From: a virus
Lineage: Duplodnaviria; Heunggongvirae; Uroviricota; Caudoviricetes
Strand: one strand, 5' to 3'
DNA: 15,411 nt
Virus record (IMG/VR): IMGVR_UViG_2802429249_000004
Location: 1 to 15,411 of that record
A program made the translations under genes and the position numbers. Below the pieces are notes generated by a model. That model searched no databases and was not told the origin of the DNA. It saw only the letters and a program-made list of their open reading frames with translations. Positions 1-15,411 of the stretch are shown here, in pieces. Numbering within the stretch: the stretch's first letter is position 1; every line of letters begins with the position of its first letter.

Positions 1-1215
1 ATGCTGCTTTCAGACCTTGCTATCAGACGCGCGAAGCCGAAAGAAAAGGCTTATACGCTCAATGACGGTAACGGGCTTTCGTTACTCATTGAGCCGAACG
101 GCTCGAAAGGGTGGCGACTACGTTACAGGTTTGCAGGAAAGCCCAAAATGTTGTCATTGGGCGTGTACCCTGATGTGTCTCTGTCTGATGCCAGGGCGGC
201 AAGGGATGAGGCTAAAAGGCTTCTTGCTGGTGGTATAAATCCAAGTGAGGCCAGAAAAGCCCAAAAGCGAGAACAGGCGAGCAAATTTGGCAATACTTTT
301 GAGGGTATCGCTCGCGAATGGTACGAAAAGCGGATCGACAGGTGGTCATCGTCATACGCCGAGGAAATGATCGAGACGTTTGAAAAAGACGTTTTTCCGT
401 ACATTGGCGGTAGGCCGATCGCAGAAATTAAGCCGATGGAATTGCTGGCGGTTCTTTCCCGTCTTAATGACCGTGGTGCGACTGAAAAATTGCGTAAGGT
501 TCGCCAGCGATGTGGCGAGGTGTTCCGGTACGCAATCATCACCGGACGCGCCGAATATAATCCAGCCCCTGACCTGGTGAGCGCATTTGCTCCACATAAA
601 AAAGAGCATTACGCCTATCTGAAGGCCGACGAACTGCCGGAATTTTTCCGCGTTTTTAATACGTACACCGGAAGCCAGATCGTCAAACTGGCAATGCGGC
701 TATTAATTCTGACAGGTGTCAGACCCGGGGAATTACGGCAGGCAGAATGGCGGGAGATCGATTTTGATAATCGTTTGTGGGAAGTGCCTAAAGAACGAAT
801 GAAGATGCGCCGTCCGCATTGTGTGCCATTACCAGAACAGGCGATAAAAATACTGGAGCAGTTAAAAAACATGACAGGCCAGTATCAGTTTATTTTCCCC
901 GGTCGTATTCACCACAGTAAGCCAATGAGTGAAATGGCGATGAATGTACTCATTCGTCGTATTGGCTACGCCGGGCGCGTCACTGGTCATGGATTCCGGC
1001 ACACCATGAGCACCATTTTGCATGAACAGGGCTATAACACTGCGTGGATAGAAACACAGCTTGCGCATGTTGATAAAAACTCAATTCGTGGCACGTACAA
1101 CCATGCGCAATATCTGGATGGTCGCCGGGAAATGCTCCAGTGGTACGCCGACTATATGGATTCGCTTGAGCATGGCGGAAATGTTGTTTACATAAAATCT
1201 GAAAAATTAAATTGA
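1..1215 (+). CDS. int: Site-specific tyrosine recombinase, P4-type integrase
   Basis: 404-aa ORF. N-terminus LSDLAIRRAKPKEKAYTLNDGNGLSLLIEPNGSKGWRLRYRF matches the P4/IntA integrase family arm-binding region. C-terminal catalytic signature GHGFRHT (H-x-x-R box) and RGTYNHAQY (tyrosine nucleophile region). ATG sits exactly at position 1, so the true start could lie upstream. Confidence 0.9.
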   Translation: MLLSDLAIRRAKPKEKAYTLNDGNGLSLLIEPNGSKGWRLRYRFAGKPKMLSLGVYPDVSLSDARAARDEAKRLLAGGINPSEARKAQKREQASKFGNTFEGIAREWYEKRIDRWSSSYAEEMIETFEKDVFPYIGGRPIAEIKPMELLAVLSRLNDRGATEKLRKVRQRCGEVFRYAIITGRAEYNPAPDLVSAFAPHKKEHYAYLKADELPEFFRVFNTYTGSQIVKLAMRLLILTGVRPGELRQAEWREIDFDNRLWEVPKERMKMRRPHCVPLPEQAIKILEQLKNMTGQYQFIFPGRIHHSKPMSEMAMNVLIRRIGYAGRVTGHGFRHTMSTILHEQGYNTAWIETQLAHVDKNSIRGTYNHAQYLDGRREMLQWYADYMDSLEHGGNVVYIKSEKLN

Positions 1216-1245
1216 TTACATTGATATTCTTATATAGGTGATATC

Positions 1246-2154
1246 ATGCTTCCTGAAAGATTGTTTTACACTCTGAATAAAGCAGCTTTTGAGATAAATA
1301 GAGATGTTTATGATTTATTTCACTATATATCAATCGGAATGGTTGATGTAGCAATAAATATAGACTTGTCAGATCTTATTGAAGAAGGAAGGGTCTCTGT
1401 TCGTGGTAAATTTAATAAAGAAATATTTACTAATACAAGAAGTAAAAAATTCAGACATCGCTCTAACTATGCAAAAATAAGTGAAGTTATTAGTTGCGAA
1501 TCTAATGGAAAGTTAAAACATAGAAAAGTCATTAAGGCATGTGGTCTTTTTTCTGTCCGAACATCCAATCTTTTTAAGATGGATGCTGATTTTGATAACG
1601 TGAAAGAATTTGTTGTTGATAGGCTATATCCAGTGAGGCTTCCATCTTTTACGCACTATAACTTGGAGGATTATAACCCACGAGTAATTTTAATTGATGG
1701 TGGTATAAATATTAAAACAAGCGATTTAGTTATAACTAAAAGTGAATTATTTTTGCTTAAAAATGGTGGAGTGACAATAAATTGGAGATTAAACCAAGTC
1801 AAATCATCTATGGATAAGTATCCCGATTTTATTAAAAGTAAAATGGATGGGGGAAATTCACGTAGTTGCGAAACAATTAACAAAATGGTGGGTAAGCCTA
1901 GAAATATCTATCGAAATGTTATTGTTGATGTAGCGAAAGCTACTCGTATTTCTTATCCGTGGAGCCATACGACATTAATTATCAATAAAATACACTCCTT
2001 GCTTTATTCTGTTGATGCTGTTAATACACCTAAAGTAGGTACAATTAGAAATATTCTTTGTTCAGAAGGAATTGGCAAAACAGGAGTGGAAACAAAAGAT
2101 GATTTCCGCTTGGTTATCCCAGAGGAGTACAGAAAATTATTTAAATTGAATTAA
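1246..2154 (+). CDS. Hypothetical protein, AT-rich orphan cargo gene (no recognisable domain)
   Basis: 302-aa ORF with SD-like AGGTGA 5 nt upstream of ATG. Codon composition is strikingly AT-rich (many AAA/AAT/ATT/ATA codons) compared with the flanking integrase and alpA. No competing ORF. Confidence 0.7.
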   Translation: MLPERLFYTLNKAAFEINRDVYDLFHYISIGMVDVAINIDLSDLIEEGRVSVRGKFNKEIFTNTRSKKFRHRSNYAKISEVISCESNGKLKHRKVIKACGLFSVRTSNLFKMDADFDNVKEFVVDRLYPVRLPSFTHYNLEDYNPRVILIDGGINIKTSDLVITKSELFLLKNGGVTINWRLNQVKSSMDKYPDFIKSKMDGGNSRSCETINKMVGKPRNIYRNVIVDVAKATRISYPWSHTTLIINKIHSLLYSVDAVNTPKVGTIRNILCSEGIGKTGVETKDDFRLVIPEEYRKLFKLN

Positions 2155-2252
2155 ATTGTATTTAATTTAAATTTTAATATTTAATTTAAAAAATACATCC
2201 TTCTCTTGTGTATATTCCAGAAACAGACTTTTATATGCATCAGGAGAAGTGT

Positions 2253-2453
2253 ATGGATAAGCAAAATTTAATTCGTATGCCAGAAACCATGCGCCGTACA
2301 GGCTATGGTAGGGCATGGATCTATAAACTCATTGCCCAAGGGCGTTTTCCTAAACCTGTAAAAATTGGCTCGCGAGCGATTGCTTTCGTTGAGAGTGAAA
2401 TTGATGAGTGGATTAATCAGCGTATTGCGGAATCACGCGGAACAGCTACCTGA
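2253..2453 (+). CDS. alpA: AlpA-family phage transcriptional regulator / excisionase-like HTH protein
   Basis: Sequence MPETMRRTGYGRAWIYKLIAQGRFPKPVKIGSRAIAFVESEIDEWINQR matches the AlpA/Vis family pattern (TG-x-x-R-x-TIY..., EIDEW). Start chosen at ATG 2253 because AGGAGA lies 6 nt upstream; the ORF track begins at 2208. Confidence 0.85.
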   Translation: MDKQNLIRMPETMRRTGYGRAWIYKLIAQGRFPKPVKIGSRAIAFVESEIDEWINQRIAESRGTAT

Positions 2454-2531
2454 TTAAATGGCTACGGGGCCAGAAGCCCCAGCTATCCACCAGCAAATAA
2501 AAAGTAACTTAATTCGATAGCAGGAGTTTTT

Positions 2532-3332
2532 ATGAAACTGCGAAAAACGCCCGTACAGGGGCAGGGCTTCGTTCGGCCTGAAAACCAGAATCTGCAAAAT
2601 TTCGGCGAAATTATCCCGATTATTTCCGGCGTTATTGGCGGGAGTGAAACCACTATTGTTAGCGCCAGAGCGTTACATAAGGCGTTAGGTGTAGGGCGCG
2701 TTTTCCGTTCGTGGATCAAGGGGCGCATTGAAGAATACGGGTTCACGGAAGGCGTGGATTATGAGGTTGTTGAATATTTGAGCCGACCCGATCCGGTGAG
2801 CGCAAAATCTCGCCAGCAAACCGCTCTTGAGTACATCATCACAGTGAACATGGCAAAAGAACTGGCGATGGTCGAACGCACCGAACAGGGCCGCGCCGTT
2901 CGTCAGTACTTCATCAAATGCGAGGAGGAGCTACACAAGGTAGCGCCAGTGCGTTCCGCAGCGTTACGCCGGGAACTGAAAGCCCGTATCACAGTTGCCA
3001 GCTACTTTAAGCCAATGTGTGCCGCGTTGGAGGCGTACCGGGCTGAACTGGGTAAAAACACGTTCCAGCACCACTACACCACGGAAGCCAATATGCTGGC
3101 GCGTATCGTGCTGGGTGGCATGACTGCAAAACAGTGGGCGCAGGCGAACGGCATCACAGGCGAACCACGCGACCACATGAGCACGTTGCAGCTTGAGCAC
3201 CTTTCTTACCTTGAGCAGAGCAATATCACGCTGATTGAGTTAGGCCTGGACTACCACCAGCGGAAAGCTGAATTAATTCGTCTTTCGCAGCGTTGGTTAG
3301 CCCGTCGCATGGAGGAAAACAGCCATGTGTAA
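2532..3332 (+). CDS. Phage antirepressor-like protein (AntA/AntB-type N-terminal domain)
   Basis: 266-aa ORF with AGGAG 5 nt upstream of ATG. Segment ARALHKALGVGRVFRSWIKGRIEEYGFTEGVDYEV resembles the AntA antirepressor domain consensus (..F..WIK.RIEEYGF.EG.DY). Assigned from memory of the family pattern, not searched. Confidence 0.55.
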   Translation: MKLRKTPVQGQGFVRPENQNLQNFGEIIPIISGVIGGSETTIVSARALHKALGVGRVFRSWIKGRIEEYGFTEGVDYEVVEYLSRPDPVSAKSRQQTALEYIITVNMAKELAMVERTEQGRAVRQYFIKCEEELHKVAPVRSAALRRELKARITVASYFKPMCAALEAYRAELGKNTFQHHYTTEANMLARIVLGGMTAKQWAQANGITGEPRDHMSTLQLEHLSYLEQSNITLIELGLDYHQRKAELIRLSQRWLARRMEENSHV

Positions 3333-4004
3333 CGCTCTGACCGTTACAAAAAGAGAAAGCGCCCCGTTGCCGGAGCGCCTTTGTGAACGAATAGCCTACT
3401 GCGCCATATTGCTTACTGTCTACGAGGCAGATTATAGCGTTGTGGTCGCACAGAGTGAAGGCGCTGATCACCGTTACTACAGCACGCCAGAAATGCAGAA
3501 TATTTTGCTGCAAAATGTCGTTGGTCACGCTGTCCGGAAAGCAAAAAATTTTGCTGGTAGCGCGACTGATGCGATTTTGTCAGGTCGCCAGGTGATGATC
3601 AATCTGATGTCTAATTTCGTTCTGGATAAAACAAAGGCGACCGCAGAGGGCCACCAGTGGGAAAGCTACACACTTGAACACATCGCCAACAATGCCAGAT
3701 TTGCGGCTGGTGGGCAATGTGATCAGTGTGCTGGCTTGCTGGTGGGCTATTCCTGCTCTTTAACATTGCCATGCCGCGATGTTTTCCAGGTATGCGACCC
3801 CATTTTTGTGCGCCTGTACTCTTTAAGGAATTTCTCAAGGATAAACGCACAGGGCGCGAATCTGTCTGACTCATATTCGTACGCTATCTTTCTGCGCTGT
3901 CTTTTCCGTGCCGGTGATGGTGTATTGGTTGATTCTTTGTTGGTCATTCTGTGTACCTGTAAAGCAATGCGCCGGAGTTCCTCACACCACGGCGATGATA
4001 GTTA
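3325..4004 (+). pseudogene. Stop-free frame beginning at an ATG overlapped with the antirepressor stop (CATGTGTAA); possible degraded or fused gene, 3' end undefined
   Basis: Start motif and first residues (MCNA...) mirror the coupled junction at 4856 (MCNA...). The first ~150 codons have protein-like composition. The frame then runs without a stop through the antisense of gene 4005-4310 and the promoter region into gene 4498-4863 (512 codons), with Cys/Ser-rich low-complexity translation in the middle. Confidence 0.25.
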
Positions 4005-4310
4005 TTATTCTGATTCTTTGGCCTTGCGGCGCTGGAGTTCTTCACGTGCGACGGTGACGAGTTGCCCGATCTCCTCGACAGCTTTGACTCCGATTTTTTC
4101 CACCTGCGCCAGTGCATTGAGCGAAGAAACCAGGGGATTTTCTCCGCTTCCTTCTGCCTGGCGGCGGGCGATCTCACCACGCATGGCGGTTACTATGAAT
4201 CCGGCGTTGCTTTCGCCGTCCAGTTTTACGGATTCCATGCCTTCAAAAGCATCATGTGGGATACGAATTGAAATCTGTTTTGATTTGTCGTTGATAGTGT
4301 TTTTTGCCAT
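4005..4310 (-). CDS. Small putative DNA-binding regulator (possible repressor of the divergent early operon)
   Basis: 101-aa ORF on the minus strand: MAKNTINDKSKQISIRIP...ELQRRKAKESE. AGGAGA lies 6 nt upstream of ATG (start 4310), and there is a double stop TAA TAA. It is divergent from the 4498 operon and shares the operator-bearing intergenic region. The ORF track lists it as 4005-4349 from an earlier ATG. Confidence 0.7.
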   Translation of the reverse strand: MAKNTINDKSKQISIRIPHDAFEGMESVKLDGESNAGFIVTAMRGEIARRQAEGSGENPLVSSLNALAQVEKIGVKAVEEIGQLVTVAREELQRRKAKESE

Positions 4311-4330
4311 GTGCATTCTCCTAAACAAAA

Positions 4331-4410
4331 GATGTGATTCAGTATACACAAAAAAGAATCACAAAAAATACTTGACCTGTGATTCAGTTAAATTTAATTT
4401 AAATCACACC
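4331..4410. promoter_or_regulatory. Divergent promoter/operator region: two dyads TGTGATTC-N14/15-GAATCACA overlapping a sigma70-like promoter (-35 TTGACC 4372-4377, -10 TAATTT 4395-4400)
   Basis: TGTGATTCAGT at 4334-4344 and 4378-4388 (direct copies). Inverted partners GAATCACA at 4357-4364 and AATCACAC at 4402-4409. -35/-10 hexamers with 17-bp spacing upstream of gene 4498. Confidence 0.5.
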
Positions 4411-4497
4411 TCAGTAAGAGGATGTAAACGACAACGCCCCGAACTGTTTGCGGCAGTAGCGGGGCGTCTAACCAAACCGTTAAATGAGGTAACGATT

Positions 4498-4863
4498 ATG
4501 GCTGGGGCACAGCATACCCAAACTCACCCTAAATTTATATACACCTTCCTGGCGGTGCACCGTGATTGCATGGCTGACGGTAAAAACACTGTTCATGTAG
4601 CCGCCGATACGCTGGTTGATGCCTGCGAGATGCTCAATGACATGGGCTATATCTCGGCAACATGGAAAGGGCGCGAAGAAAACACGTTGTTTATTCAGAA
4701 ATGCGAAAACAATTTTATCTGGCGTTTTATCGCCCTGAGTACGGCACAACCGCGCGTGATTCACATCGAGGCCACCAGCGAACAGGAAGCACGCCAGCAA
4801 TCTCCTGATGGCTGCGTGATGGTATTCGCTGCCCATATTCGCCAGGAGGTGGAGCATGTGTAA
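4498..4863 (+). CDS. Hypothetical protein (first gene of early operon)
   Basis: 121 aa. GAGG 8 nt upstream of ATG 4498. Stop overlaps the next start (CATGTGTAA). Confidence 0.65.
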   Translation: MAGAQHTQTHPKFIYTFLAVHRDCMADGKNTVHVAADTLVDACEMLNDMGYISATWKGREENTLFIQKCENNFIWRFIALSTAQPRVIHIEATSEQEARQQSPDGCVMVFAAHIRQEVEHV

Positions 4864-5080
4864 TGCAACATGGCCTGATGCAGCGGTAGACGCTATCAAA
4901 ACGCTGATGGATTCACTTATTGAGATTTCTGCTATCGCTGGTGTGGCGCATAAACACGCAGCCAGAGAATCAGAATGCATCTCCCATTATTTAGCATTTG
5001 TGCAGCTGAAAGCCGATCAGGCACTGGATAAGGCCGGAAAAATTATCATGGCTGATGTGCAGGAGGTGCACCATGCATAA
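4856..5080 (+). CDS. Hypothetical small protein
   Basis: 74 aa. Start overlaps the upstream stop (ATGTGTAA). Stop overlaps the next start (ATGCATAA). Confidence 0.6.
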   Translation: MCNATWPDAAVDAIKTLMDSLIEISAIAGVAHKHAARESECISHYLAFVQLKADQALDKAGKIIMADVQEVHHA

Positions 5081-5438
5081 CCTGTCAATTTCTGACCTTA
5101 ACAGCATTCAGTTTGACGAGAAATTTACCGGGCAGCTACTGGTCAATGTGGAGAATGGACGCGTGGTAAGTAATTATCACCTGCCGGATGGTGCAATTGC
5201 CGGAAGCGTTGAAGCATTGCTGGAGCTGGCAGAACGTGCGCGACTGATTAAGCCGTTAACGTGCCATCACGATGATAATCTGCATTTTACCGGACGCATG
5301 GTGAGTCACTACGAAAACGGCGTTGAAGTATCCTGCGAACGTCTGCGTGATGATTGCTGTTTCGGCACATTGCCGGAATTTATCGAATTGCTGACCAGTT
5401 GCGGTTATCAGGTCATTCAGGGGGGGAAACATGCGTGA
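5073..5438 (+). CDS. Hypothetical protein with internally duplicated ~50-aa FTG-motif domain
   Basis: 121 aa from ATG 5073, with AGGAGG 6 nt upstream; the ORF track starts at 5055. Two internal repeats (FTGQLLVNVENGRVVS...GSVEALLELAERARLIKPL and FTGRMVSHYENGVEVS...GTLPEFIELL) and paralogy with gene 5657-5857. Confidence 0.65.
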   Translation: MHNLSISDLNSIQFDEKFTGQLLVNVENGRVVSNYHLPDGAIAGSVEALLELAERARLIKPLTCHHDDNLHFTGRMVSHYENGVEVSCERLRDDCCFGTLPEFIELLTSCGYQVIQGGKHA

Positions 5439-5664
5439 TGATCGTTTTAATTCCCTGAAACAGGAGTTTGATGGCGCACCGGAAGATACATCGGGCGCAT
5501 TGTTGAACGTTGCTGACATGATGAAAGCTGCATATTTTCTTATCAATACCAATGGCTACAAGTCAGAGGGTGAAATGATTCTTAGTATTGCGTCGGACTA
5601 TGCGGAATATGTGGCAGAGGCGCGTTACAGAAGAAAATTCACGGAGGATATAAGCCATGCATAA
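5431..5664 (+). CDS. Hypothetical small acidic protein
   Basis: 77 aa. Start overlaps the upstream stop (ATGCGTGA). Stop overlaps the next start (ATGCATAA). Confidence 0.6.
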   Translation: MRDDRFNSLKQEFDGAPEDTSGALLNVADMMKAAYFLINTNGYKSEGEMILSIASDYAEYVAEARYRRKFTEDISHA

Positions 5665-5857
5665 TCATGAAGCGCATGTACCCGTAGTGCTTAATGTGCC
5701 AGATGATTTCACCGGACGCGTACTGGTTTACCTGGATAAAGGGAAAGTGAAATCACAACGCCGACTGAAAAGTAATGAAATTTTGGGTTCTCCTGAGTTT
5801 TTTTCTGAACTCTGTATTCGTGCAGAAATAAAACCGGAACTGCTGACAGGAAAATAA
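5657..5857 (+). CDS. Hypothetical small protein, single-copy paralog of the FTG-motif domain
   Basis: 66 aa, MHNHEAHVPVVLNVPDDFTGRVLVYLDKGKVKS...GSPEFFSELCIRAEIKPELLTGK. Aligns by eye with both halves of gene 5073-5438. Confidence 0.6.
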   Translation: MHNHEAHVPVVLNVPDDFTGRVLVYLDKGKVKSQRRLKSNEILGSPEFFSELCIRAEIKPELLTGK

Positions 5858-5861
5858 AACC

Positions 5862-6152
5862 ATGAAAAAGAAAAATTCTGGCTTTACTGCCAGCGGTCTC
5901 TCTCGGCCTGAAATCAGACACGGAGATATTTACCGCGACACCATACGTGGGGGACGAGCGGTTATTTGTCATGTTACGCCAGAAAATATCACCTACCGCC
6001 GTGACGCTTATGAATATGACTGCATAATGCCGTGCCGTCAGTTTGAGCGTGATTTTATTCTGGTGGAGAACAAACAACAGGAAGCGACGAGACGTGCAGC
6101 CATGAATATTAAAAAAATCCGGGCAATGTTGGTTGCGGGAGGTAAGAAGTGA
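5862..6152 (+). CDS. Hypothetical basic protein
   Basis: 96 aa. Stop overlaps the GTG start of the primase (GTGA), consistent with translational coupling. Confidence 0.55.
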   Translation: MKKKNSGFTASGLSRPEIRHGDIYRDTIRGGRAVICHVTPENITYRRDAYEYDCIMPCRQFERDFILVENKQQEATRRAAMNIKKIRAMLVAGGKK

Positions 6153-7954
6153 AAAACGCACCGAGTCTAAAATATCAGCCGAAGGATAAATTCACTGAGG
6201 TAATCATTTTTGCCGGGACGGATGCTTACGCCCATGCTCAACACTGGATTGAAAGTGAAGGACGAAAACACGGCGATAACGTGCCTCCTGTTTACCTGGG
6301 GCCAAAGCAACTGGCAGACCTGGCGAATATCCGCATTATTGACGAGAAACGCCGTTTTGCGCGTGTCTATATCGCGGGGGAGATAGAGCCAATCCAGATC
6401 AATACTATCGCTGAAAAGCTGGCGCTGGCTGGCGTACAGGACGCGAAATTATACAAAGGTATCACCGACCGGGAGCCGGAAAACTGGCGCGACTACCTGC
6501 AACGGATCCGCGAACAGGCAGAGAGTGGGGAAGTTTCAGCGATGAAATTAGCCACAAAAAATATTGACCTACCCAGGCCAGCACTAAATCAGATGGGAGC
6601 CAGCCAGAGAGGGGAAGTGTTACTTGAATATTATGGAAGAGCACTGGCTATAAATGATGATTCTGATGTAGTTCACCATTACAACGGAATTGTCTGGGTG
6701 CCTGTATCTGATAAGGAACTCCAGCGGTCTATGGCGAAGATTTTTATTGATGCTGGAATCAGTTATTCGCAAAACGCCATTAAATTTGCCGTAGACACAA
6801 TGAAATTGAGCCTGCCTGTTATGGGCGGGGCAGACAGGAATCTTATTGGATTCAGTAACGGGGTATTTGATACCCGGACGGGAAATTTTCGGGAGCATAA
6901 CAAAAATGACTGGTTGTTAAATGCCAGTGAATTACCGTTCAGCCCACCAGCAGAGGGGGAAACGCTGGCAACACATGCGCCGAATTTCTGGAAGTGGCTG
7001 CGTCGTTCGGTGGCAGATAATGATCGTAAAGCTGATCGCGTACTGGCGGCATTATTCATGGTACTGGCGAACCGGTACGACTGGCAGTTATTCCTTGAGG
7101 TAACAGGCCCAGGCGGAAGCGGTAAAAGTGTGATGGCTGAGATTTGTACCATGCTGGCGGGTAAGGCCAACACAGTATCGGCAAGCATGAAGGCTCTGGA
7201 AGACGCAAGGGAACGCGCGTTAGTAGTTGGCTTTTCGCTGATTATCATGCCGGATATGACTCGCTACGCTGGCGATGGTGCAGGAATTAAGGCAATTACT
7301 GGCGGCGACAAGGTGGCAATTGATCCGAAACATAAAGCCCCCTACTCCACACGTATTCCGGCAGTAGTGCTTGCGGTAAACAATAACGCCATGTCATTCA
7401 GTGACCGAAGCGGGGGGATCTCGCGTCGTAGGGTGATATTTAATTTCTCTGAGGTCGTACCGGAGAACGAACGCGATCCCATGCTGGCGGAAAAGATAGA
7501 AGGCGAACTGGCGGTAGTGATTCGCCATTTGCTAACACGATTTACCGACCAGGACGAAGCTAAAAGACTACTTTATGAGCAGCAAAAATCAGAAGAAGCG
7601 CTGTTGATAAAGCGCGAAGGTGATTCACTGGTGGACTTTTGCGGCTATCTGATGTCGTTGGTTAAATGTGAAGGAATGATGGTGGGCAATGCGGAAATAG
7701 TGCCATTTAGCCCGAGGCGATACCTGTATCATGCTTATTTAGCCTATATGTCAGCGCATGGCCTGGGAAAACCAGTATCACTGACACGCTTTGGTACTGA
7801 TATGCCAGGAGCTATGGCGGAATACGGAAAGGAGTATAAGCGGGCTAAATGCACTAAAGGCCCGGATAAAGGGCGAGTGATAACAAATGTTCTGTTAGAT
7901 GATGATGCTGATGGCTGGTTGCCAGCAGCTACAGGGATTAACGACAGAACATAA
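6149..7954 (+). CDS. P4 alpha-like primase/helicase (phage/plasmid primase P4-family C-terminal domain, D5-type P-loop NTPase)
   Basis: 601 aa. Walker A GPGGSGKS, with downstream segments typical of P4-family primase C-terminal/D5 NTPase proteins. GTG start with GGGAGG 6 nt upstream. Iteron cluster immediately downstream. Confidence 0.8.
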   Translation: MKNAPSLKYQPKDKFTEVIIFAGTDAYAHAQHWIESEGRKHGDNVPPVYLGPKQLADLANIRIIDEKRRFARVYIAGEIEPIQINTIAEKLALAGVQDAKLYKGITDREPENWRDYLQRIREQAESGEVSAMKLATKNIDLPRPALNQMGASQRGEVLLEYYGRALAINDDSDVVHHYNGIVWVPVSDKELQRSMAKIFIDAGISYSQNAIKFAVDTMKLSLPVMGGADRNLIGFSNGVFDTRTGNFREHNKNDWLLNASELPFSPPAEGETLATHAPNFWKWLRRSVADNDRKADRVLAALFMVLANRYDWQLFLEVTGPGGSGKSVMAEICTMLAGKANTVSASMKALEDARERALVVGFSLIIMPDMTRYAGDGAGIKAITGGDKVAIDPKHKAPYSTRIPAVVLAVNNNAMSFSDRSGGISRRRVIFNFSEVVPENERDPMLAEKIEGELAVVIRHLLTRFTDQDEAKRLLYEQQKSEEALLIKREGDSLVDFCGYLMSLVKCEGMMVGNAEIVPFSPRRYLYHAYLAYMSAHGLGKPVSLTRFGTDMPGAMAEYGKEYKRAKCTKGPDKGRVITNVLLDDDADGWLPAATGINDRT

Positions 7955-7981
7955 TACGAAATTTATAAGCTGAAACGTAAA

Positions 7982-14481: not shown

Positions 14482-15411
14482 ATGCCTATTCCAGCGAAGG
14501 ACAATTTGCTAAAAAGAATCCTGTCTGTAGATAATGCAACTCAACTACCAGCACTTATCGATAAAGATGTTATGCAGGAACAACACAATATCACAGCTAA
14601 TCTTCTGAGAAAAGGCTTAGGTATAGTAGCATTTAATATTCTGGAAGATTTTATAAAATCCAGAACTATAGAAATGTTTGATTTTATATCTAATGCACGT
14701 GTGAGATTCGAGCAGTTACCCGATTCTTTTAGAATTGCAGCAACAAATGGTGCATTAAGAGGATTAGTATATCAGGCTGGATTAGAAAAGAAAAATAATG
14801 GAGATTGGTTGGCACTAATACATTCTGAGGCCAAAAGTATTTTTTCAACGTCGCAATTTCCTTATACATTATCTCGAGTATCACTTCTTTCAGATGGTTC
14901 TAATGTTGGACATGATGATATACCAGAAGTAATGAAGTGTCTTGATATAACTGGTGGGTGGAAGACATTACAAAAAATATCGAACGATATTGGTGGTGGT
15001 ACATTAGATCTGAATGCTGCTTATAAAAATATGTTTTTCGATAGAAATAGATGTGCTCATGAAGCAGGTTTTAATTATCCATATACCTCTCTCGATAATT
15101 CTTTAAATGACATTGTTACTATTGCTTCTGCATTTGACATAGCGTTAACTACTCGTTGCAGGTATATAGAAAAACAACCTAATTTACCGCTTTCAGCTCA
15201 TAAAGAAAAAGATCCGTTTTCATATCGGTTTTTAATCGCTGATGGAGATGTTTTTCGAGAGAAAAAATCATTAGAACCTGGTGCGAAAACAATAAAAAAA
15301 TGGAGTAATATCTCTGATGCACAATCTAATTTAATTCCTAAGCTAAGACTCCGCGATGAGTTTTTGATTTATATAGGAAAACAGAGAAGGCTTAGTGATT
15401 GGTATTTGTGA
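14482..15411 (+). CDS. Hypothetical protein, operon partner of the DUF262 protein; weak HEPN-like R-x4-H motif
   Basis: 309 aa. ATG lies 1 nt after the upstream TAA, so the two are tightly coupled. Same AT-rich composition. Motif RNRCAH at aa 188-193. Stop TGA falls at the window end. Confidence 0.7.
   Translation: MPIPAKDNLLKRILSVDNATQLPALIDKDVMQEQHNITANLLRKGLGIVAFNILEDFIKSRTIEMFDFISNARVRFEQLPDSFRIAATNGALRGLVYQAGLEKKNNGDWLALIHSEAKSIFSTSQFPYTLSRVSLLSDGSNVGHDDIPEVMKCLDITGGWKTLQKISNDIGGGTLDLNAAYKNMFFDRNRCAHEAGFNYPYTSLDNSLNDIVTIASAFDIALTTRCRYIEKQPNLPLSAHKEKDPFSYRFLIADGDVFREKKSLEPGAKTIKKWSNISDAQSNLIPKLRLRDEFLIYIGKQRRLSDWYL

Follow-up and report, generated by a model that had tools for sequence, protein, structure and literature searches.

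In the Staphylococcus aureus pathogenicity islands (SaPIs) and other Gram-positive phage-inducible chromosomal islands (PICIs), the stl or rpr gene lies beside the integrase gene, is hypervariable, and each of its alleles answers a different helper-phage protein (PMC6092414). Gram-negative PICIs have no Stl-like repressor; there alpA is both necessary and sufficient for induction, and the control of alpA itself is an acknowledged gap (PMC6092414). Most subfamilies of the Vibrio PICMIs (phage-inducible chromosomal minimalist islands) have, between int and alpA, a gene named iolg or icg (integrase-overlapping or integrase-contiguous gene), that belongs to one of 13 unrelated families with no known domain; the parts of that report drawn on here describe it as essential for excision and of no assigned function, deletion of iolg abolishing helper-induced excision, and treat it as a life-cycle gene and not as cargo (Barcia-Cruz et al. 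2024, PMC10803314). P4 satellites have a defence hotspot between psu and int, next to cos, whose one to several genes, in varied architectures, include many defence systems that are validated or can be recognised (Rousset et al. 2022, PMC9122126). Here we analyze a gene of 302 amino acids (aa), called gene X below, that lies between int and alpA of a satellite island in the Caudoviricetes record IMGVR_UViG_2802429249_000004. The whole stretch that was analyzed, 15,411 nucleotides (nt) at positions 1 to 15,411 of that record, is referred to as the window.

A sequence-only reading of the window had taken X for recently acquired cargo of a P4-like satellite, possibly a single-gene defence or exclusion factor. 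The reading we favour, held with about as much doubt as confidence, makes X a DNA-binding regulator with sequence specificity: it would control the alpA promoter through the repeats next to its gene, be exchanged between islands as a cassette together with them, and plausibly set the helper specificity. What was observed directly is strict synteny, the borders of the cassette, and repeats that are real and co-vary with the slot protein, not with AlpA or the integrase (Int).

A one-gene slot between int and alpA

The features of the int-alpA region are the following.

1..1215, plus strand: P4-type tyrosine integrase gene (int), with the Pfam domains Arm-DNA-bind_3, Phage_int_M and Phage_integrase (8.5e-33, 8.5e-28 and 1.9e-26)
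1186..1245, plus strand: left cassette junction, made up of the last ~10 int codons (AT-rich tail VVYIKSEKLN and stop), a 30-nt gap and the Shine-Dalgarno sequence (SD) of X
1236-1241, plus strand: SD of X, AGGTGA, 4 nt before the start codon
1246..2154, plus strand: gene X, 302 aa, ATG start, member of an uncharacterised family
2138..2190, plus strand: three phased copies of the cassette-specific repeat TATTTAATTTAAA, proposed as candidate operators for X
2193..2254, plus strand: alpA leader hairpin, 5' arm 2193-2215 and 3' arm 2233-2254
2211-2216: candidate -10 element TATATT, inside the 5' arm of the hairpin
2253..2453, plus strand: alpA, the satellite master activator and excision regulator (Pfam Phage_AlpA, 9.7e-20; role from PMC6092414)

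A gap of 30 nt separates X from the int stop codon (1215) and one of 98 nt separates it from alpA; int and X are probably co-transcribed. The earlier description of an AT-rich single open reading frame (ORF) with a good SD and no recognisable motif was correct: the G+C content (GC) is 0.28-0.33 along the ORF and 0.32 overall against about 0.50 on either flank, neither a Walker A motif nor a transmembrane (TM) segment was found, and X has no match in Pfam, NCBIfam, PADLOC or PHROGs. The ratio of non-synonymous to synonymous substitution rates (dN/dS) is 0.13 and 0.17 against two close alleles, and X is therefore a real gene. Remote homology searches, which the sequence-only reading had proposed, matched no characterised family. 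Comparison of X with the Protein Data Bank (PDB) by sequence and by profile gave empty or spurious results, and a Foldseek search of a structure model (mean predicted local distance difference test score, pLDDT, 80) against the PDB returned nothing below E=0.08 and no whole-fold match. The model predicts a conserved, acidic, winged-helix-like block at residues 7-46, a basic, beta-rich region at 50-175 that contains the motif DLLITxxELxLLxxGG, a disordered stretch at 184-222 and a three-helix domain at 223-290 (GKPxNxYK...PTxxTIxNWL...DFELVIP). Its compact fold matches include recombination directionality factors (Pukovnik Xis, RdfS).

A word-indexed search with X found near-identical E. coli proteins only. 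When 1.84 billion cluster representatives were searched exhaustively with HMMER (E<=0.001), a small, divergent family of 18 proteins emerged, mostly of 270-344 aa, that share three blocks, namely the N-terminal LPERxYYxLxKAAxxLxxxxxDLxHYxxxGxLxL, the central DLLITxxELxLLxxGG and a helical one at the C-terminus. Pfam gave no match at the gathering threshold for any of the 18 aligned sequences, PF12728, PF13411 and PF05930 included. The family comprises 15 distinct lineages, and downstream sequence was available for 22 loci; its members come from E. coli, Gilliamella, metagenomes and IMG/VR. An alpA-like gene lies directly downstream of X on the same strand in all 15 lineages, and a P4-type integrase gene lies upstream wherever upstream sequence exists, with four small ORFs in between in one case; no X was matched in phage or plasmid records. 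Two loci show tandem arrangements: a truncated paralogue of 181 aa that holds just the C-terminal half (P0015) stands immediately upstream of the full-length P0011 (L029 97-1653), and P0007 is preceded by two ORFs of ~160 aa (L013 4-2183).

We compared the int-alpA interval across related elements, a check that the sequence-only reading had suggested, and the slot proved variable. Of 5,426 complete E. coli genomes, 2 have the window allele of X. Other slot genes, of 251-aa, 238-aa and 265/256-aa types, stand between the same flanks in other islands, and among E. coli relatives there are at least 4 allele families with no detectable similarity to one another. With BLASTP and hhalign, X showed no remote homology to the other slot alleles of E. 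coli, short in-register patches being not significant, and these other alleles are mostly without detectable similarity among themselves as well. In each of the 11 sampled islands the slot is occupied by a single gene on the same strand, of 238-302 aa; none was empty or held several genes, and in all 11 the slot gene has a GC of 0.32-0.42, below that of the backbone.

The swapped segment runs from ~1186 (last ten int codons) to ~2267 (first alpA codons). On the left, homology with the CI5, ECamp52 and avian pathogenic E. coli (APEC) islands stops at alignment column ~86, which is window position ~1186; the right junction falls within the first ~5 codons of alpA (~2267), and apart from its first residues the window AlpA is 95% identical to that of CI5. 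There are two further repeats at the junctions on either side of X: an imperfect inverted one of 53 nt (1177-1229 and 2148-2200, 72% complementary) and an exact direct one of 10 nt, AATTAAATTG (1205-1214 and 2149-2158). Either may have arisen by chance in DNA so rich in AT, which is likely for the 53-nt one, or may be a trace of the repeat motif on both sides.

Several observations were made on the alternative alleles. The commonest E. coli slot allele is the 55989-type, with 43 clusters in Escherichia, Salmonella, Citrobacter and Yersinia. It is a mosaic: its N-terminal half varies, it has a coiled coil, and its C-terminal block of 75 aa (ERPILL...DPLYLAIEIRNREWANYDP...SIELVACPIKR) is nearly invariant. 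The 238-aa APEC allele shares ~40 residues of this block (E=0.003). The 251-aa slot gene of ECamp52 (L003 3245-4000) bears the RefSeq label 'protein kinase', which is probably a misannotation; no NCBIfam kinase model matched it, and its 99% identical homolog in CI5 is annotated as hypothetical and has no Pfam kinase match.

These data bear on the proposal that X is single-gene anti-phage, abortive-infection or exclusion cargo of an integrase-proximal hotspot. The slot varies between otherwise near-identical islands and the X allele is rare. That the slot is replaceable was supported, with at least three unrelated alternatives. The part that read low GC as a sign of recent arrival was not, because X homologs have a GC of 0.27-0.38 in every host, including islands at 0.48-0.52, and low GC is thus a trait of the X family. 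All slot alleles are low-GC orphans with no assigned function, satellites are known to carry defence genes (PMC9122126; also the parts of PMC10803314 drawn on here), and novel single-gene systems would by definition be missed by PADLOC. Against this, no defence model or domain (nuclease, NTPase, TIR, Sir2, TM) matches X by sequence or fold, and three alternative slot alleles matched no defence or other family model and were absent from PADLOC. The slot of the sampled islands always holds one same-strand gene of similar size, the X family was seen in the int-X-alpA context only, the cognate repeats described below face alpA and not the promoter of X itself, and the recognisable cargo of the island sits at its 3' end. 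The hotspot that had been cited as precedent is a different locus, psu-int next to cos and not int-alpA (PMC9122126), and the equivalent PICMI gene is needed for excision rather than for defence, as far as the portions of PMC10803314 used here report. The one-gene synteny, the lack of a defence signature, the exclusive int-X-alpA context and the location of defence cargo at the island's opposite end weaken the case for defence, which we keep as a rival and regard as quite unlikely.

Repeats and a hairpin before alpA

The repeat-rich spacer that had been noticed downstream of X is real. TATTTAATTTAAA occurs in two exact copies, at 2159-2171 and 2178-2190, and in a third copy with 2 mismatches at 2138-2150 that overlaps the last codons of X; the spacings are 21 and 19 nt, and a direct repeat as long as the window's was found in 0 of 1000 shuffles. 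We applied a uniform test to all loci, in which the best pair of 11-mers at 18-25 nt spacing and no further than 55 nt from the stop codon was compared with shuffles. The window gave p=0.0025. Of the 15 X lineages, 10 reached p<0.05 (Fisher combined 5e-14), as did 3 of the 4 non-X alleles, compared with 0 of 18 control regions after the int or alpA stop codons of the same loci. In most cassettes a palindrome or direct repeat of 10-14 nt occurs at least twice in phase, beginning no more than a few bases from the stop codon of the slot gene. The post-stop repeats are as follows.

Window: TATTTAATTTAAA
L012, L017, L028 and L032-L034: TGGAATATTCC
L019: GTAAATNNCCCCTG
L030 and L031: AATGGAAA
CI5-type allele: ACCGCAATTGCGGT
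55989-type allele: ACCCTNAGGGT, with three or four sites before alpA in L021-L027

The repeats follow the X subfamily and not AlpA or Int. Slot proteins and repeats both differ between the window and CI5 despite their similar AlpA proteins, between L012 and L019 (AlpA 90%, Int 96%), between L009 and L017 (AlpA 89%), and between the APEC and 55989 islands, whose Int proteins are 100% identical. Conversely, TGGAATATTCC occurs twice at 20-25 nt spacing (20-21 nt in 5 of 6) in six members of one X subfamily whose X proteins are only 30-40% identical to each other and stand beside four different AlpA types. The pair at the P0019 locus was predicted before the locus was retrieved and was then confirmed, and the motif was found nowhere else in the loci compared. 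P0010 and P0011 also share a post-stop element next to different AlpA types. Because the repeats dissociate from AlpA and Int, AlpA autoregulatory sites and Int arm sites were ruled out as their identity. A fourth copy of TATTTAATTTAAA at 4391-4403, which overlaps the -10 element of a strong divergent promoter, was considered as a second target of X and rejected, since the identical promoter is found in APEC E123, which has another slot allele, and is absent from the X-carrying E. coli HNSQ2209.

Linkage alone would yield co-variation, and the repeats could be bound by something else, for example a transcription factor of the helper phage or a nucleoid protein of the host like H-NS, with X a hitch-hiker that has an unrelated role. 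The repeats of the window are extremely AT-rich and alpA is known to be helper-activated (PMC6092414), both of which would suit such a factor; the GC-containing palindromes TGGAATATTCC, ACCGCAATTGCGGT and ACCCTNAGGGT, however, are unlike H-NS sites. Furthermore, the TGGAATATTCC pair has not changed, although the X proteins next to it now share just 30-40% identity and AlpA has been exchanged three times; this points to a partner that is specific to the repeats and encoded by the cassette itself. We judge binding by an unrelated factor to be very improbable.

It is unlikely, in our estimate, that X is instead an accessory factor of excision and integration that works physically with Int and AlpA, as proposed for the PICMI IOLG protein, and not a transcriptional regulator. 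X is contiguous with int and the C-terminal tail of Int is swapped along with it, the compact fold matches of the predicted model include Pukovnik Xis and RdfS, and the acidic winged helix at the N-terminus could mediate contacts with other proteins. In PICMI115 deletion of iolg abolishes excision and its authors propose an Int-IOLG-AlpA complex; according to the same parts of that report, however, the deletion is complemented only by int and iolg together, and a loss of alpA induction would explain the phenotype equally (PMC10803314). The repeats, moreover, lie more than 0.9 kb from the int start, far from the expected att arm sites, and Int is 96-100% identical across different slot alleles and repeats, a diversity that a specific partner of Int would not need.

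Between the repeats and alpA lies a leader hairpin in which the alpA SD (AGGAG, 2242-2246) is paired, as is the beginning of the start codon (ViennaRNA minimum free energy -20.6 kcal/mol, z=-5.2, SD pairing probability 0.89). Within 70 nt before alpA, an SD-pairing hairpin that abuts the start codon was found in 16 of 20 non-redundant loci, in all slot families and with all AlpA types. Beside the window, the loci with a hairpin are L002, L004, L009, L012, L014, L018, L019, L021, L023, L028-L030, L032, L034, L038 and L039. The pairing probabilities are 0.7-0.93, 13 loci have a z of -2.5 or lower, and the stem sequences vary by lineage. No intrinsic terminator was found between X and alpA, and a consensus scan found no sigma-70 site and no -35 consensus before alpA. 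From the candidate -10 element we place the putative transcription start site (TSS) of alpA near 2223, which would centre the repeats at about -39, -58 and -79. The hairpin may serve as a fold-back insulation of alpA from int-X read-through: in read-through transcripts the SD would be paired in the hairpin and alpA would not be translated, and transcripts that start inside the hairpin would lack the 5' arm and be translatable.

Returning to X as a regulator of alpA, we propose the following sequence of events. X would be a position-locked regulatory component of a PICI-type satellite, made together with the integrase, and would recognise the phased repeats, two or three in number, found from its stop codon onwards. 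Bound there, it would gate transcription from the alpA promoter, its presumed target, under modulation by a phage cue, and alpA expression would trigger excision and replication of the island. X and its repeats would move as one cassette through recombination within the 3' part of int and the 5' part of alpA; unrelated slot alleles have different repeats of their own, and the slot would hold interchangeable regulator-plus-operator modules, plausibly with different helper-phage specificities. As to the sign of X, a repressor would parallel the SaPI Stl, and an activator would fit better with the missing -35 element and with the iolg deletion phenotype as given in the PICMI report. A broader and more tentative proposal, which we consider possible but doubtful, is that the slot genes of Gram-negative PICI-type satellites, X and its non-homologous counterparts, are the missing helper-phage sensors, each with private operators at the alpA promoter, so that cassette exchange re-wires which helper induces the island and the hairpin insulates alpA from constitutive int-X read-through.

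The island and its relatives

The gene order in the window is int, X, alpA, AntA-like, Icd-like, DUF4222, D5-type primase-helicase, ProQ/FinO, PerC and a helix-turn-helix (HTH)/TerS-like gene. The features downstream of alpA are the following.

6149-7954: primase-helicase, D5_N/DUF5906/Pox_D5 (Pfam)
8326-8868: ProQ/FinO-family RNA chaperone
8865-9152: PerC-family regulator, directly after the ProQ/FinO gene
13425-15411: NsnA-like and HEPN_RiboL-PSP gene pair at the 3' end of the island (PADLOC)

The recognisable anti-phage cargo of the island is the NsnA-like and HEPN pair at its 3' end. The NsnA-like protein has a PADLOC match of 7e-65 and also matches PD-T4-2_A (3.5e-33); the HEPN_RiboL-PSP ORF that follows it runs to the end of the window. 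PerC-like genes of an E. coli PICI reportedly modulate LEE (locus of enterocyte effacement) expression (PMC11773190). Action of the ProQ/FinO protein on the alpA leader hairpin is a conceivable link only.

The P4-like label given to the island was not upheld. The window does carry an integrase, AlpA and an alpha-type primase-helicase; integrase, AlpA and primase-helicase alone also define a 'Type C PICI' (PMC10085698). No window ORF scanned with Pfam matched Psu, Sid or Ogr_Delta, and there is no Phage_ASH match for Ash/epsilon in the window, although Phage_ASH does occur in some distant X-bearing islands. Because Psu, Sid, Delta and Ash are all missing, the island is, on its gene content, not P4-like by the SatelliteFinder criteria (PMC10085698), and its layout is that of a Gram-negative PICI (PMC6092414). 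These islands have int at the left end followed by co-directional alpA and a pri-rep module, span ~10-15 kb and occupy a fixed att site (PMC6092414); the window island agrees with this description in its gene order and, through its relatives, in its location. A near-identical int-X-alpA-antA module (97-99% identical) adjoins tRNA-Gly in E. coli HNSQ2209 (island at L001 14902-26638), and relatives are found at tRNA-Thr. In the HNSQ2209 island a RepA-family helicase replaces the D5-type primase and the downstream genes also differ; the islands are therefore modular mosaics.

The remaining observations concern other parts of the window. Rfam identified no RNA family, its one weak match (HOLDH, 24.7 bits against a 319-bit threshold) being spurious. 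A divergent control region at 4311-4440 lies between a minus-strand gene that starts near 4311, in the position of the YlcI/YnfO-family gene of related islands, and the Icd-like/primase operon. It holds a strong sigma-70-like promoter (TTGACC at 4372-4377, 17-nt spacer, TAATTT) within repeated TGTGATTC / GAATCACA operators, and the region is identical in APEC E123. A mechanical ORF of 512 aa at 3325-4863 is probably not a single gene: similarity to Icd-like or repressor families is confined to the final ~50 residues, both the minus-strand gene and the promoter region overlap this stretch, and related islands annotate separate small genes there.

Significance and comparison with known systems

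The X family and the cassette-specific phased repeats before alpA are new here, a limited literature search having found no description of them. A position-locked family with subfamily-specific repeats makes the control of alpA in Gram-negative PICIs directly testable, and it is a caution that a low-GC orphan beside an integrase gene is not automatically defence cargo. If X acts as we propose, slot alleles would predict helper specificity from sequence and would be a source of orthogonal regulator/operator pairs. If the slot genes are also the helper-phage sensors, they would be the functional counterpart of the SaPI Stl diversity, built from unrelated proteins in a different gene layout.

We compared X with four known systems. 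With the MerR/excisionase HTH_17 winged-helix proteins (AlpA, Xis, RdfS, BldC), X shares no family model at threshold; it has an acidic block, is four to five times longer and has two further domains with no match. The slot of X resembles the P4 hotspot in being integrase-proximal, exchanged by recombination and part of an enterobacterial satellite. It differs in being bounded by int and alpA with no psu, in always holding one gene, in showing no defence signature and in including the repeats before alpA.

The closest functional analogy to X would be the SaPI Stl, an integrase-adjacent, hypervariable induction switch. In our favoured reading both would combine a DNA-binding part with variable parts and control the switch of the satellite cycle. 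There is no sequence or fold similarity between the two. Stl is transcribed divergently from the genes it represses, the divergent region holds its operators, and an HTH can be recognised at its N-terminus, whereas X is co-directional with alpA in all loci, its repeats begin at its own stop codon and no HTH sequence model matches it, its predicted N-terminal block being winged-helix-like. The candidate operators of X are the cassette-specific phased repeats between X and alpA that track the X subfamily.

The comparison with the PICMI iolg/icg gene refers to the parts of PMC10803314 drawn on above. Cognate repeats before alpA are not described there, and the mechanism given is an excision complex rather than promoter control. 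X starts 30 nt after int with no overlap, and the likeness considered here is one of position. In both cases int and alpA have a single gene between them, in the same orientation, that adjoins or overlaps int, and many unrelated families occupy the position (at least 4 in E. coli relatives). By this analogy of place, X is the positional equivalent of the iolg/icg gene, which is the closest known system.
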